From an uncultured Candidatus Saccharibacteria bacterium (GTDB taxonomy: Bacteria; Patescibacteriota; WWE3; UBA101185; UBA10185): a stretch of DNA of 64,000 nt. Numbering within the stretch: the first letter of the stretch is position 1; each line of letters begins with the position of its first letter. The notes beneath the pieces are model-generated. The model worked only from the letters and a program-made list of their open reading frames with translations, made no database searches and was not told where the DNA came from. Positions 41,525 to 50,186 of the stretch are shown piece by piece. The stretch lies in NCBI GenBank assembly GCA_964387275.1, contig CAYLVW010000003.1, positions 45,796 through 109,795 on the forward strand. The letters are read 5' to 3'. The position numbers and the translations under genes are program-made.

Positions 41525-42508
41525 TCACTCATCATCATTAAAATCCTCACTATCTATTTCTTTATGAAATTTCTCATGTATGTCCTTTAACTGTTTGTTA
41601 GTGACATGGGTATAAATTTGGGTTGTTGATACATTTGAGTGACCTAATAACTCCTGGACAGAGCGCAAATCAGCCCCATTTCGCAGTAAATCCGTTGCAA
41701 AAGAGTGCCTCAGTGTATGCGGAGTTGCATCAACACTTATACCCGCTCTTAATGTATATTTCTTAACAAGTCTTTGAACACTTCTGACAGTAAGCCTCAG
41801 GGATTCACCCTCAAAATCTTCAGGCTCCATATGCTTACCACTATATCTAAGAAATAGAGGATCAAAACTGTCTATTCTGGTACCTAAATATCTTTTTAAC
41901 CAGCTCCTAGCACTTTCTCCTAAAAACACCATTCTTGCCTTACGACCTTTACCAATTACTGTAAACTCACCAGTATTTAAATTAATATCGCCTTTATTTA
42001 GCTTTACCAACTCACTTACTCGAAGACCAGTTGTAAAAAGTGTCTCTAAGATCGCCCTATCTCTTAAACCAGATTTTTTGTTTAAATCTTGCACTTCAAA
42101 TAATCTCTTCAGTTGATCATTGTCCAGTACTTTAGGGACCCTGTCTTCCATTTTCCCAAGAATAATCTGATCCGGGGAAATTACCTCAATTTTTTCTTCT
42201 ACCAGCAAATATTTTAAAAAAGCTCTTGCAGCAACCAAAAAAGTTTTTTGAGTAGTTCTTTTAAACTCGGTGTTAAATTTTTTGCTTTTGCGCCTGTTTA
42301 AATCCAATCTGTATTTCCTGATTAATTCTTCGCTTAAATCCTTGGCAGTTAACTTGTCCTTACTAAGCTGAGCAGAGCACCAGTCTAACATGTCAGTAAG
42401 ATAAAAGTGGTACATTTTTATGGTATTTTGAGACAAGTTTTTTTCAATCTCACAATGCTCTAAATATCTAATTAAAAGGTCGTGAAGGGTTTTTCCAGAT
42501 TGTGGCAT
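41525..42508 (-). CDS. Tyrosine site-specific recombinase (XerC/XerD family)
   Basis: C-terminal 'HTLRHSFATDLLRNGADLRSVQELLGHSNVSTTQIYTHV' (R..H..R..Y catalytic signature). Start set at the MPQSGKTLHD ATG. Confidence 0.85.
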   Translation of the reverse strand: MPQSGKTLHDLLIRYLEHCEIEKNLSQNTIKMYHFYLTDMLDWCSAQLSKDKLTAKDLSEELIRKYRLDLNRRKSKKFNTEFKRTTQKTFLVAARAFLKYLLVEEKIEVISPDQIILGKMEDRVPKVLDNDQLKRLFEVQDLNKKSGLRDRAILETLFTTGLRVSELVKLNKGDINLNTGEFTVIGKGRKARMVFLGESARSWLKRYLGTRIDSFDPLFLRYSGKHMEPEDFEGESLRLTVRSVQRLVKKYTLRAGISVDATPHTLRHSFATDLLRNGADLRSVQELLGHSNVSTTQIYTHVTNKQLKDIHEKFHKEIDSEDFNDDE

Positions 42509-42530: not shown

Positions 42531-42560
42531 TGTATGGAGTTTAACGACATTAATTTATAA
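42531..42560. repeat. Direct repeat copy A (overlaps the xer 5' end and upstream)
   Basis: 'tgtatggagtttaacgacattaatttataa' against copy B 'tgtatgtttaacgacattgaattacat'. Confidence 0.6.
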
Positions 42561-42594
42561 TTATAAATCGATTTTGGTGGCTGTGGATTGAATT

Positions 42595-42626
42595 GGGGCG
42601 GCCTTTTTCATGAAAAAGGCCGCCCC
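42595..42626. terminator. Bidirectional rho-independent terminator (perfect palindrome)
   Basis: 'ggggcggcc tttttcatgaaaaa ggccgcccc'. 9-bp GC stem with an A/T run on either strand. Confidence 0.7.
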
Positions 42627-42665
42627 CAACACCCAAACAACAAAACCAGCCATATTGTGACAAAA

Positions 42666-43013
42666 TCAAAAAGAAATAGAAACAGTGAGATAAGTCGGTG
42701 TTGAAAACTTAACATCAAAAACATAGCATTGAGAGTTTAAAGCCCTCATAAAATCCCCATACAACAAGTCATAGTCACCGAAAACTCTCTTAAGAAGAGT
42801 GGAAACGACATAAATAGTATTCCATAAACACATATTCCTGTAGATGCTTTCTGGTATACCAGCTTCTAGCTGTCGTTCAGAATTAATATAACCTACAGTA
42901 ATAGTTGTAACCTTGCCACTCTTTACCAAGTCAAAAAAACTAGGAGTAAGTTCTAATTTAAACCTAGGCAACATAGTATCGAAAAGGGACAAACTTCCTG
43001 TTCCGAGTGTCAT
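42666..43013 (-). CDS. Hypothetical protein
   Basis: 115 aa with no motif. Downstream of the AT-rich region. Confidence 0.4.
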   Translation of the reverse strand: MTLGTGSLSLFDTMLPRFKLELTPSFFDLVKSGKVTTITVGYINSERQLEAGIPESIYRNMCLWNTIYVVSTLLKRVFGDYDLLYGDFMRALNSQCYVFDVKFSTPTYLTVSISF

Positions 43014-43019
43014 ACTAAG

Positions 43020-43989
43020 ATGCCTCCTTTAGGCATAGTTCTTTCTCCGTCTACGATTTACAGTTTATACCACCCAGAGTCGTAGCGAGTCAAATGATTC
43101 AGCATACCTATTAATAATAATAATCGATCCTGGGGCATTCTAGAGGCCATATGCCAGAATTTGTTGCTACTACAAGTAAAACAAGCCTTTACATGTCCCA
43201 TATAGTGTATAGAGAACTAAATAAGGAGGAGTCTAGTCATTAAAAAGCAAAACTAGCGGCAAGGGAAAACTATAGTGATAGACAAAATAGGGAATAAATA
43301 AAAAACTAAAATAATTTTTCAAATTTTTTTATCTTACAAATAAATTACTTCGCCAAAATAAAAACTAAAAATAAAATATAGACTAATTTTTAGAGAGAAG
43401 CGCACTTTACTAGATATCTGAAACGTCGTTAAATGTATGTTTAACGACATTGAATTACATTTTAGGCCTTACTACAGTAACTAAAGAGATTCACAGGTAA
43501 AAAGAGAAGAGTTAGTAATCGGACAGTAATTTAATCCCGAATTTCACTAAATTAATCACTATAAAAAAATATTTAAATAAATAATAAATATATTATTAGT
43601 TTCTTAACCAGGCTCAACACCACAGCTTAAGTGATTGGGTTTGATATACCGCAGTCCTACATATCCACAAAGTCTACTCCCTGCACAGGTGGATATTACC
43701 TAAATTAGAATCAAAAATCATGGGTTTTTGTTGTTATATTAACCTAAAGAGGCATAACTATGACAAACCTCCATAAAAACTATGACAATCCTACAATGGT
43801 CATTAGAATATTATTATGACAAACGTACAACTATAGGTTAGCAGACTACCCTATAGTATGCTACCCTGCTTCTCTGTCCCATACTGTAACCCGAAAAATT
43901 ACCCAACAAATAATTACTCAATAATTCCCTTTTTATTGCAGTGAAAAGGAAAATAAAAACTCACGATATATTTTTTATAAATATTAAGC
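43020..43989. promoter_or_regulatory. 970-bp AT-rich ORF-free region with DnaA-box-like motifs and short direct repeats
   Basis: No ORF of 60 aa or more. 'atatccaca' at 43661 and 'ggtggatat' at 43688. Three copies of 'tatgacaa(a/t)c' at 43759, 43781 and 43815. Long A/T tracts. Confidence 0.4.
43444..43470. repeat. Direct repeat copy B (pseudo 5' end of xer, 'MSLN...')
   Basis: The reverse complement encodes 'MSLNIH...', mirroring the Xer N-terminus 'MSLNSIQ'. Contains the palindrome 'gtcgttaaatgtatgtttaacgac'. Confidence 0.55.
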
Positions 43990-47615: not shown

Positions 47616-50186
47616 CTAATGATTGGCGGTTCCCGCAAATCTGGAAGAATCAGAGCCTCCTGAAACACTTCTAGACCCATCTGAAGGCTTTCTATCCTTA
47701 GCTTCCTGAGCAAGAGCTAATCCCTTATCAAAATTAGTTTCAACCCACTTATTTATTTTTTCTTCGACATAAATTCTATCAGTACCATACTTCTCCCTAC
47801 TTCTTGCAATTACCTTCTCCTTATTAGGGGTATTATTTATTATGTTGGAGCCAGATTCCCAAGGCAAAAGTATTCGTGCAGAAAAAGGCAAAGACGTCAT
47901 ACCATCTATCATAAGCTTGATATAAATGTTAAATCTCTCAAGCGATATAATATCACTTTGATCAAAATATGGCGCAAACTCGTTAGCTAATACCTTAGCA
48001 TCTGGAGCACCCAAAGAAAATGTTGCTATGGTACCGACATTACCAAAAACTGCTTTTAGTAAGTTCTCTGGCAACTGGTCTGTAAATTGGTGTGTCAAAT
48101 ACAAACCAAGTCCGTATTTTCGGGACTCTGATAATATTTCTTCAAAACTACCTGTTGCAAAATTTTGAAATTCATCAACATATAAGTAAAAGGGCCTTCT
48201 CTCTTTATAGGGTATCTTGGCTCTTTGTAAAGCCATAAACTGAATTCTAGAAACTAGTAAAGCTCCCAAAAGATTAGAGTTATCTGTACCTATCTTACCT
48301 TTGGATAAATTCATCAAAACAATCTTGCCGTTATTCATAGCTTCCCATAGATTTATTGTAGATTTTCGCTGTCCTAGAATATTTCTAATAGTTGTGGAAG
48401 CTAAAAACCTATTTACCTTGTTTTGGATAGGAGCTATGGCTTCTGTCGCAAATTTCTGATTTCCCTTTAGGTTTTTAAACTCGGTCTCCCAAAACCTAAG
48501 CACTACTGGATCCTTAACATAGTGGAGTATATACTTCCTGTAGTTATCATCCTCAAGCAATCTAGTTATGCCAAGTAGTGTGGTTCCAGGAACCTCCAGT
48601 AACGTCAAAATTGCGTAGTTAAGTAAATATTCCAATCTAGGACCCCAAGAAAAATCAAAATGGTGTTTAATAGCAGATACAAGGGCAGAAGCCATAATAT
48701 TTTTCTGAGAAGGGTCTTCCATTTCAAGCAGATTTAACCCTATGGGACGTTCTGTATCTGATGGGTCAAAGTAAATTACATCCTCGATTCTATTATCTGG
48801 AATGTGTTCTAAAACCTTATCTATAGTCTCACCATGAGGATCCAACACCCCAACGCCCGCACCATTTTGAATGTCCTGTGTGATCATGGTTTCGAGCAAT
48901 GTAGACTTACCTGTACCAGATTTACCAATTAGGTACATGTGCCTCAATCTATCATCGGTATTAGCCATCCCAAATCTAACCTTTGAACTTCTATACATAG
49001 TTTCTCCCATATAATTACAATCTGTAATTGGCAATGTTGACGGAGGTTCTGCTTTTTTTGAGTGTATCCAGGAAATATTTGGTGTTTCGACCTTATTAGA
49101 TGGCATATGATAGAGAGTTGCAAGCTCTTCAACATTCATAACAACAGCTCTCTCATCCTCGTACTGCCTCTTTATATAAGCATCTAGAGCATAATTTCTA
49201 TCATGTGATATTGTAGAAACAAACGCATTAGAAGATGTACTGGTAAACTGCTTTAAAGAAGCTACAACAGATCTGAGATTAGAAACTACCCTATCTTGGG
49301 TATTAGAAGAGGACATAACTCTAATAACAACCTTATAACCCATCTTGGCTAACTTATTCTCAATCCCACTTAACTCATTTTCCTGAACTGGAGTAAGTTT
49401 TGGAGGCCCAGCCGGCTTTACTGAAGCCACAGGCTTACCAAACCTATCAACCTCGGCGTTGTATCTAAAAGGCGATATAGCTATATTGGAAGCTAAATCC
49501 AGCATTTCCTTACCAATAGATCCCGCAAATTCAGCAAAAGGGTTGCTACCAGAGCTTTTCTTTAGATCTACCCCTTCCCTTATAGCGTTTGTATATTTGT
49601 AACCGTCATTTTGCCAAGTATCAGGAGTGGGTCTAACTAATACCTGCATCCACAAACTCTCTTCACCAAGCACTTCAGAAAAAGAAGAAGTTAACCCAGA
49701 TAATGGATCAGTCTCAAAATCTCTGAAAGTTTTTATTGGGAAAAAATCTGGTTTTGAAAAACTAAGGTAGCTTACCTCAAAAAAAGAATCACGGGGCGTA
49801 TATTTCTCAGTATAATCTGAAACAGGTATTAATTGAGCTGTGGGGTATTGAGCATAAAGCTGACTTTCTACAAATTTAATGGCGGATGGAGGGGCTGTAA
49901 AATAAAACTTCAAGCCTTCTCTACCAGTAGATACAATCTCAAAAGAAATGTTCTCCTGAACTATGGAGTCCTCCCTAAGAAGACCGTGTAAGGATGCGAA
50001 CATATTTTCTGCAGAAAGTGGGGAGGTTTCTAGTTGATTTTCATCAATTTTAGGTACGCGGATTTCAAAAACTTCAAAGGCACCGGAATTAGAAGCTGAG
50101 GTATCGATTTTAGAACCAAATCGTTTAAACGCTATAAAACCCCCGGTCAAGGCTATAAGACTAAAAACTATAAAATATATTGCCAT
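47616..50186 (-). CDS. Membrane-anchored P-loop ATPase of the HerA/FtsK/TraD (DUF87-like) superfamily with a large N-terminal domain of unknown function
   Basis: N-terminal TM. About 400 aa with no motif. 'RHMYLIGKSGTGKST' Walker A, 'VLDPHGE' and 'FYLYVDEFQNF' Walker B. 856 aa. Confidence 0.6.
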   Translation of the reverse strand: MAIYFIVFSLIALTGGFIAFKRFGSKIDTSASNSGAFEVFEIRVPKIDENQLETSPLSAENMFASLHGLLREDSIVQENISFEIVSTGREGLKFYFTAPPSAIKFVESQLYAQYPTAQLIPVSDYTEKYTPRDSFFEVSYLSFSKPDFFPIKTFRDFETDPLSGLTSSFSEVLGEESLWMQVLVRPTPDTWQNDGYKYTNAIREGVDLKKSSGSNPFAEFAGSIGKEMLDLASNIAISPFRYNAEVDRFGKPVASVKPAGPPKLTPVQENELSGIENKLAKMGYKVVIRVMSSSNTQDRVVSNLRSVVASLKQFTSTSSNAFVSTISHDRNYALDAYIKRQYEDERAVVMNVEELATLYHMPSNKVETPNISWIHSKKAEPPSTLPITDCNYMGETMYRSSKVRFGMANTDDRLRHMYLIGKSGTGKSTLLETMITQDIQNGAGVGVLDPHGETIDKVLEHIPDNRIEDVIYFDPSDTERPIGLNLLEMEDPSQKNIMASALVSAIKHHFDFSWGPRLEYLLNYAILTLLEVPGTTLLGITRLLEDDNYRKYILHYVKDPVVLRFWETEFKNLKGNQKFATEAIAPIQNKVNRFLASTTIRNILGQRKSTINLWEAMNNGKIVLMNLSKGKIGTDNSNLLGALLVSRIQFMALQRAKIPYKERRPFYLYVDEFQNFATGSFEEILSESRKYGLGLYLTHQFTDQLPENLLKAVFGNVGTIATFSLGAPDAKVLANEFAPYFDQSDIISLERFNIYIKLMIDGMTSLPFSARILLPWESGSNIINNTPNKEKVIARSREKYGTDRIYVEEKINKWVETNFDKGLALAQEAKDRKPSDGSRSVSGGSDSSRFAGTANH

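Follow-up and report, generated by a model that had tools for sequence, protein, structure and literature searches.

A candidate single-recombinase xer/dif-type module in a Patescibacteria lineage, with a possible half-site operator

Introduction

The DNA analysed here is a stretch of 64,000 nucleotides (nt), referred to below as the window, from the assembly of an uncultured Candidatus Saccharibacteria bacterium (GCA_964387275.1, contig CAYLVW010000003.1, positions 45,796 to 109,795); all coordinates count from its first letter. On its minus strand lies xer, a gene for a Xer-family tyrosine recombinase, and the DNA upstream of that gene holds two direct copies of a short repeat: copy A, beside the start of xer, and copy B, about 900 nt farther away, which forms part of a 28-bp site resembling the bacterial recombination site dif. 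An earlier, sequence-only reading of the locus had proposed that the two copies are attL/attR scars of an integration or excision event mediated by the adjacent recombinase, or else a partial duplication of the 5' end of the gene. The comparisons described below favour a different interpretation, which we regard as fairly probable, namely that xer and the 28-bp site form a linked single-recombinase module of the xer/dif type in a Patescibacteria (candidate phyla radiation, CPR) lineage, with a possible autoregulatory operator.

The xer gene

The xer gene (41525..42508, minus strand) encodes a protein of 327 amino acids (aa) when read from Met15 of the longest open reading frame (ORF), which extends to 42550 and 341 aa. 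Pfam models recognise a Phage_integrase domain and an N-terminal SAM-like domain, and E. coli XerD (1a0p) is the top match in the PDB, at E 2.5e-47. The catalytic residues are intact: R, K, HxxR, H and Y align with those of 1a0p, and the motifs GLRVSEL, GKGrKaR, HtLRH, GHS and IYTH are conserved. Among NCBIfam models the protein scores 254.7 bits for XerD, 246.5 for XerC and 216.4 for XerA_Arch, all under the equivalog cut-offs (220 in the case of XerA_Arch). It belongs to neither the XerS family (125.5 against a cut-off of 267) nor the XerH family, where the match to structure 5jjv reaches only E 9.8e-15 against 2.5e-47 for XerD. No second tyrosine recombinase was found among the genes of the 64-kb window.

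The sequence-only reading had placed the start of the recombinase at the peptide MSLNSIQ. This peptide does open the longest ORF, but its ATG at 42550 belongs to the repeat arm of copy A, in which ATG-TCG-TTA-AAC happens to read MSLN. The true start is probably Met15 (ATG 42508), because the 14 codons between 42550 and Met15 evolve neutrally, the relatives have short N-termini, gene calls give the 327-aa form and the arm itself accounts for the codons MSLN. In comparison with a sister strain (contig L058), those 14 codons show three non-synonymous changes and one synonymous change, and the ratio of non-synonymous to synonymous substitution rates (dN/dS) is 0.013 from Met15 on. In relatives only 10-25 residues precede the conserved YLEHCEIEKN of Xer. 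Furthermore, the 327-aa form was called by two pipelines and is on record in an exact-protein look-up, in which the 341-aa form is not.

The repeat pair and the core site

As read from the window sequence, copy A is tgtatgGAGtttaacgacattaattt (42531-42556) and copy B is tgtatgtttaacgacattgaatt, whose first base is 43434. The pair had thus been described correctly apart from a slip of 10 nt that put the start of copy B at 43444. An exact 12-mer, TTTAACGACATT, is common to both copies (42540-42551 and 43440-43451), and a repeat search stretches this shared core to 24 nt with 83% identity at a spacing of 900 nt. An inverted copy with one mismatch lies at 43422-43433. The search for further copies that had been suggested was run on the 64-kb window and returned only these three occurrences of TTTAACGACATT with at most one mismatch, against 0.54 expected, and 0 of 100 shuffled sequences reached three. 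The repeat is real and not a product of chance.

Copy B, which supplies a right arm and a spacer, together with its inverted partner makes up the core site, ACGTCGTTAAA-TGTATG-TTTAACGACAT (43423..43450, no strand assigned), in which two 11-bp arms flank a 6-bp asymmetric spacer. The arms are nearly identical (NNGTCGTWWAA) and differ at one position. The site lies upstream of xer and is the sole match to its own pattern in the window. Its geometry falls within that of Xer sites, in which two inverted arms of ~11 bp enclose a centre of 6-8, and up to 11, bp. The internal palindrome that had been pointed out in copy B, gtcgttaaa-tgtatg-tttaacgac, is therefore real and grows to the 11-6-11 arrangement with its one arm mismatch. 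The outer aatgta...tacatt arms described around it are likewise present in the window, but relatives do not keep them and have unrelated flanks at these positions. Moreover, the MSLN peptide of copy B, which had been taken for a duplicated gene start, results simply from translating the dif arm ATGTCGTTAAAC, which likewise yields MSLNIH in a relative (L002). The half-site makes the apparent gene start and not the reverse, which argues against a partial duplication of the 5' end of xer.

Conservation of the site and its linkage to xer

A protein-based scan of species-representative genomes gave 55 loci (L001-L055). The ten closest (L001-L010; 68-75% Xer identity) are metagenome-assembled genomes of Patescibacteria, labelled variously Saccharibacteria or WWE3. 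In each of these ten protein-selected relatives, a single copy of NNGTCGTTAAA-CATACA-TTATACGACGT lies in the same orientation, 250-520 bp upstream of xer. Within the core, 25 of the 28 positions are invariant, and pairwise identity is 95% compared with 32% and 38% in the 40-nt flanks. This test of conservation is unbiased because the ten loci were picked by protein alone.

In addition, an exact scan of metagenome contigs for the core pattern yielded 100 further loci (L064-L163), with one site each. Wherever such a metagenome contig continues for more than about 950 nt past the site, it encodes a Xer homologue that is 46-74% identical to that of the window and lies 148-2383 nt downstream, on the same strand. 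A dif site linked to its xer gene has been described as a hallmark of single-recombinase systems (PMC5357621), and such linkage is found here in the loci with enough DNA to reveal it. No match to the core pattern was found in 2.9 million viral contigs. The suggested dif/att nature of copy B and its association with the adjacent recombinase are supported by the 11-6-11 geometry, by the more than 100 xer-linked loci and by a likeness to E. coli dif. In the orientation of the window plus strand, the clade consensus equals E. coli dif at 16 of 28 positions, including the contiguous ATAATGTAT over the arm-spacer junction; at these 9 nt the relatives match the inner core of the E. coli site exactly.

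The 28-bp site was not found in the more distant Xer relatives of the same scan (L011-L055, at most 49% identity). Eleven of these distant relatives, which include Peregrinibacteria and Gracilibacteria, have AATCCCGTACAAT in common, 10-120 nt upstream of xer (L013, L014, L016, L018-L021, L024, L025, L030 and L052; that is, 10 of 34 scanned plus L052). This element possibly resembles a promoter element rather than a palindrome.

The flank of the core site

Beyond the site, as seen from xer, ~400 nt of DNA are densely occupied by conserved, oriented boxes. In the window this flank (43560..43856, minus strand) comprises an A/T-only tract (43560-43598), which lies between a TGTGGATAA-type box and the core site; the window copy of that box, the DnaA-box-like TGTGGATAT (43661-43669); an iteron-like array of three direct TTGTCATA boxes (43759-43824); and, farthest from the site, two CTATAG boxes (43831-43836 and 43851-43856), all on the minus strand. 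The box TGTGGATAA, allowing at most one mismatch, occurs in one orientation in 73 of 73 non-redundant loci and usually about 210 nt from the site. Beyond it stand the TTGTCATA boxes (TGTCATA), with a mean of 2.75 per locus, in 2-5 direct copies that almost all share one orientation and are often ~24 nt apart. The CTATAG boxes are outermost, beyond TTGTCATA, and the order and orientation of boxes are fixed across the loci compared (the 500 nt upstream of the site in L001-L010, L058 and L064-L163). The three boxes of the window are its sole matches to TATGACAAWC, for which 0.33 would be expected in 64 kb.

The side of the site facing xer has a conserved feature of its own. At 20-35 nt from the xer-proximal arm, both the window and the relatives L001-L010 have a CTTCYCT box; in the window this is CTTCTCTCT (43392..43400, minus strand; 22-30 nt from the arm), and relatives have CTTCCCT in the equivalent place.

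The sequence TGTGGATAA is the reverse complement of the DnaA-box consensus. No cluster of DnaA boxes was found, as the region has one box with one mismatch and box counts in the window are at chance level. An origin of replication (oriC) was considered for the region and rejected, there being neither a DnaA-box cluster nor a switch in strand bias.

Copy A and the xer promoter

Copy A contains a single arm. Its half-site, ATGTCGTTAAA(C) (42540-42551), sits within a 22-nt block, AATTAATGTCGTTAAACTCCAT (42534..42555, minus strand), 31 nt upstream of the Met15 ATG. The best candidate for a second arm in the window sequence, at spacings of 6-9 nt, matches at 3 of 11 positions, and the 6 nt past the arm (CTCCAT) agree with the dif spacer (CATACA) at the first base only. 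The 22-nt block is unchanged in the contigs of the sister strain (L058-L061), in which the DNA from the block to a nearby GC-rich palindrome is unalignable and neighbouring genes have diverged at synonymous sites (dS) by 0.6-1.0. Copy A is non-coding, and the comparisons indicate that it is functional DNA in the leader or promoter of xer.

Similar half-sites recur at the same position in other lineages. The exact core GTCGTWWAA stands no more than 160 nt before the Tyr29 codon in 13 of the 65 non-redundant loci, compared with a background expectation of 0.28, and all 13 are on the xer strand with none on the other. Seven of them read ATGTCGTATAAT, which is the xer-proximal dif arm plus one base, contains TATAAT and lies 6-9 nt before the xer ATG. 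In three other loci the half-site abuts a TTTACA hexamer resembling a -35 element, and in the window the best promoter match of the region (TCCACA-16-TATAAT, 10/12) ends 9 nt before the half-site. In two lineages (L088, L089) the ATG of the half-site meets a stop codon ahead of xer, and so the half-site is non-coding there as well. Lineages with a half-site mostly have no gene between dif and xer (e.g. L088, L089, L101, L119, L153); insertion therefore does not account for the half-site. Copy A would most economically be read as an operator by which Xer senses its own level.

Three loci (L124, L136, L156) have many extra exact half-sites, ~1.3 kb upstream of the site on the opposite strand and at several downstream positions. 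One of the extra half-sites in this group is inverted and has an arm-plus-spacer-like sequence, ACGTCGTTAAACATATAAG.

The interval between core site and xer

Between the two copies lies an interval of 870 bp that holds a lineage-specific orphan gene, ORF115 (42666..43013, minus strand), with a good Shine-Dalgarno sequence, AAGGAGG, 9 nt upstream. The product is 90% identical to that of the sister strain, and a dN/dS of 0.08 against L058 points to purifying selection. Homologues of ORF115 are confined to its own species group; none was found in L001-L055 or L064-L163. The protein has no Pfam, NCBIfam or PHROG match and no phage, defence or mobile-element signal, and its AlphaFold model is unusable (mean predicted local distance difference test score 42).

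Upstream of ORF115 lies a 27-nt promoter-like motif, GGCCTCTAGAATGCCCCAGGATCGATT (43122..43148, minus strand), in which a TAGAAT hexamer resembling a -10 element is followed by a GC-rich discriminator. At least ten other lineages (L001, L003, L006, L007, L008, L067, L074, L077, L091, L126) have the same motif 83-184 nt ahead of the Tyr29 codon of xer. The arrangement in the window looks as if ORF115 sat behind a former xer promoter. The interval is partly ancestral, because both this motif and the CTTCYCT box are common to relatives; as a whole it would be the ordinary dif-xer spacer, in which ORF115 and a GC-rich hairpin were acquired in this species.

The hairpin corresponds to a perfect 32-nt GC-rich palindrome between ORF115 and xer, with the halves GGGGCGGCCTTTTTCA and TGAAAAAGGCCGCCCC (42595..42626, no strand assigned). 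It stands in a genome of 34-38% GC and folds as RNA at -41 kcal/mol (z -3.9). The sister strain keeps it symmetric through a paired change of T5/A5 to T6/A6, and short-read k-mer assemblies (Logan contigs) break exactly at this point. The sequence-only reading had the repeat pair bracket the ORF at 42666-43013 and a bidirectional terminator. The pair does bracket the ORF and the palindrome, but the latter has no U-tract and a terminator scan made no call. A REP-like (repetitive extragenic palindromic) mobile unit was considered as well and rejected, the palindrome being unique in the window. Searches with Rfam at gathering and permissive thresholds gave only a tRNA-Leu elsewhere and sub-threshold matches on the palindrome.

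Other orphan ORFs (96-430 aa) fill the dif-xer spacer in L068, L077, L085, L093, L123 and L124. One of them encodes a double zinc ribbon and one a repeat protein, and none has mobile-element matches.

Neighbouring genes

The neighbours of xer are housekeeping genes, which encode RuvC, YebC and a 274-aa membrane protein on one side and a 349-aa membrane protein, an IMPDH-like protein and RNase HII on the other. Gyrase B and A and DnaB are encoded farther out in the window, yet no replication switch is seen there. At the 3' end of xer, genes of opposite orientation converge. An 856-aa ATPase (47616-50186, minus strand), encoded five genes away from the site, combines a HerA central (DUF87) domain with TrwB/VirD4 coupling-protein domains and is syntenic in relatives, along with RuvC and YebC. 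HerA has been proposed as an archaeal analogue of FtsK (PMC2958812).

Interpretation and alternatives

In the interpretation that we favour, 43423-43450 would be the core recombination site for the Xer protein encoded ~0.9 kb downstream on the minus strand. As the arms are near-identical, one protein could serve both: each arm would bind one monomer of the same Xer around the 6-bp asymmetric spacer, and strand exchange would occur within that spacer. Chromosome dimer resolution is the most likely role of such a site. Copy A would not be a recombination partner of this site but an isolated Xer-binding half-site in the xer leader or promoter, where bound Xer would most plausibly repress its own transcription.

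Several observations weigh against this interpretation. The best promoter match of the window is not retained in the sister strain, the ten closest genome relatives have no half-site at the promoter, and the position of the half-site relative to promoter elements varies between lineages. Furthermore, the single copy of the site is a count within the window and within each of the 110 loci. The remaining points concern the replication terminus, since canonical dif sites lie at or track the shift point of GC skew (PMC3025954). Raw GC-skew profiles were uninformative because gene orientation dominates them, and they were replaced by a strand-bias test that compares GC and TA skew at third codon positions (GC3, TA3) between plus- and minus-strand genes. 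Whichever sub-region of the window is taken, GC3 and TA3 skew are positive for genes on the minus strand and negative for those on the plus strand; the minus strand is leading across the whole 64 kb, and 41 of 57 long ORFs lie on it. The bias keeps its sign for at least 43 kb on one side of the site and 20 kb on the other, spans in which no skew shift of the kind associated with dif was found. Likewise, about 90 pooled loci, oriented by their sites, keep the sign of the bias, with values of +0.120 for plus-strand and -0.073 for minus-strand genes to the left of the site and +0.095 and -0.050 to the right. As there is no change of sign at the site, neither a terminus nor an origin switch is located there. 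A switch more than 20 kb from the site, just beyond the window, would still be compatible with these results; the published distance criterion of 5% (PMC3025954) corresponds to ~50 kb in a 1-Mb genome. Because the skew-switch test was negative, the site is filed here as a dif-like Xer core site and not as a dif in the strict sense.

In a first alternative, the palindrome would not be a recombination site. It would act as an operator, or as a structural component, in a larger region concerned with regulation or replication (iterons, DnaA-like box, A/T tract) that controls xer or something else, and some other protein would bind it. In 73 of 73 loci the conserved boxes do form an array of ~400 bp in which the site stands at a fixed distance, and the site is off any skew switch. 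However, the 11-6-11 architecture, the asymmetric 6-bp spacer and the identity of ATAATGTAT to bacterial dif fit Xer sites specifically, and the same half-site recurs at the promoter of xer itself. The lack of a DnaA-box cluster also tells against a replication element, and the missing skew switch that speaks for this alternative excludes oriC at the same time. We consider it unlikely.

A second alternative is that the dif-xer spacer is a hot spot at which Xer captures small genes in the manner of cassettes or dif modules, with the half-sites as decayed second sites. It would account for the differing orphan ORFs in the spacers of the window, L068, L085, L077, L093, L123 and L124, and two of these lineages (L093, L124) have both an insert and a half-site beside xer. 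Against this, the lineages with half-sites are mostly insert-free (L088, L089, L101, L119 and L153 among them), and inserts occur on either side of the promoter-like motif GGCCTCTAGAATGCCCCAGGATCGATT, upstream of it in L077 and downstream in the window. Moreover, a second complete site was found in 0 of 100 loci, and the spacer ORFs are without matches to mobile elements, so that a capture hot spot seems quite improbable.

The attL/attR model put forward from the sequence alone has the interval (42552-43421) as an integrated element in the style of the integrative mobile elements exploiting Xer recombination (IMEX), with the full dif as attL and a degenerate dif as attR, made and possibly excised by the adjacent recombinase. 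It implies an empty-site (deletion) junction, in which AATTCAATGTCGTTAAAC would be joined to TCCATACAAATATC, as well as a circle junction. The copies do lie in direct orientation around a lineage-specific gene, and in this species they share an extra flank, AATT(C)AATG. No other lineage has ORF115, and in the window the distance from dif to xer exceeds the usual one by ~400-600 bp. In addition, known IMEX sites may have one very degenerate arm (PMC3025954, PMC5357621). However, copy A lacks a second arm (at most 3 of 11 matches) and agrees with the spacer at its first base only. The CTTCYCT box and the TAGAAT motif inside the segment are ancestral, and since there is ancestral DNA beside dif, the boundaries of any insertion differ from the positions of the repeats. 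Half-sites also precede xer in lineages that have no insert. A check for presence or absence of the segment in eight contigs of the species and its sister strain, from several samples, found the identical arrangement in all eight and no polymorphism. ORF115 has no mobile or phage signature, and the site itself is missing from 2.9 million viral contigs. None of the features that define IMEX was found, whether two complete sites, element DNA that starts at the sites with empty sites in relatives, or mobile cargo. The scars proposed for this locus are thus very hard to reconcile with the data, and we give the model little credence.

Finally, chance similarity or a functionless partial duplication of the 5' end of the gene is scarcely credible and effectively refuted by the conservation data: exact sharing does amount to just 12 nt, and short two-copy repeats are common in AT-rich DNA, but no shuffled sequence in 100 reached three copies, both copies are invariant against the sister strain at a dS of 0.6-1.0 and they have counterparts in other lineages.

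Within the xer/dif-type interpretation, the fixed flank invites a more far-reaching proposal, which we offer tentatively and consider somewhat unlikely. The core could be the catalytic end of a conserved nucleoprotein platform of ~450 bp, ordered as two CTATAG boxes, 2-5 phased TTGTCATA iterons, TGTGGATAA ~210 nt away, the A/T tract, the core and the CTTCCCT box. Such a platform might allow dimer resolution of the kind seen at the plasmid sites cer and psi, independent of the terminus and of FtsK, in a portable xer-dif module whose half-site operator would set the dosage of Xer. If the flank imposed selectivity on resolution, a location at the terminus would, speculatively, be unnecessary.

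Comparison with known Xer systems

The nearest precedents are the XerS, XerH, XerA and XerL systems. In XerS/difSL of streptococci and lactococci and XerH/difH of Helicobacter and Campylobacter, as here, genetic linkage joins a single recombinase gene to a dif-type site of its own, whose arms are nearly symmetrical (PMC5357621; see also PMC1914069). However, difSL has 31 bp with an 11-bp centre, compared with 28 bp and a 6-bp centre at the present site, and XerS/difSL is located at the terminus and depends on FtsK, whereas no skew switch is seen at the site described here. The Xer protein of the window is also closest to XerD, XerC and XerA and not to XerS or XerH.

The archaeal XerA/dif system likewise has a single recombinase and a site of 28 bp in the 11-6-11 format (PMC2958812). 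In Sulfolobus the predicted dif lies near xerA and has conserved sequence on one side, and in Thermococcales the flanks of dif are conserved and have been proposed to bind a partner (PMC2958812). The present module differs in its bacterial host, the sequence of its arms, a much larger flank (~400 bp) and the half-site at the promoter. Similarly, canonical XerCD/dif (E. coli GGTGCGCATAATGTATATTATGTTAAAT) has a site of the same length and geometry, with 16 of 28 positions identical including ATAATGTAT, and XerD is the best structural homologue of the recombinase. In contrast, that system uses two paralogous recombinases on distinct arms and its dif is unlinked to the xer genes, and the skew that marks a canonical dif is not found locally here.

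The XerL/dif system of Legionellales is also a divergent single-recombinase system that standard searches had overlooked (PMC9765430). It was found near the terminus by way of an integrated element, LME-1, that carries a dif mimic, whereas no element is evident at the present locus. The IMEX group, which comprises the CTX phage, the gonococcal genetic island and LME-1, also presents two adjacent direct dif-like sequences. The ends of such elements are two-armed, even if degenerate, and bound the DNA of the element, whereas here the second copy is single-armed and the interval is partly ancestral.

The plasmid sites cer and psi have a core with a long one-sided conserved flank that binds proteins, and the oriented flank of ~400 bp described above is similar in layout, although the likeness is one of resemblance only. 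The flank of cer is ~180 bp, is bound by ArgR and PepA and confers selectivity of resolution without FtsK (PMC5357621). Unlike the present site, which is chromosomal and linked to xer, cer and psi are borne on plasmids and use the XerCD of the host, and cer has an 8-bp centre.

Concluding remarks

The Patescibacteria (CPR) make up a large and mostly uncultured share of bacterial diversity and have tiny genomes. A search of the full-text literature did not turn up any account of a Xer/dif system for Patescibacteria or CPR. The locus supplies, at the level of sequence, a candidate site together with its recombinase in more than 100 contigs, and the site could serve as a landmark in these genomes. 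For annotation, the ATG of the half-site produces a false extension of xer by 14 codons, and the repeat should not be marked as the boundary of a prophage or island.

The interest of the locus lies mainly in its clade-wide architecture and in the location of the site off any skew switch, and less in the repeat itself. Two questions are raised in this way for the biology of the lineage, namely whether a long accessory flank may enable a chromosomal Xer site to function at a distance from the skew switch, and whether Xer may regulate its own expression through a half-site.

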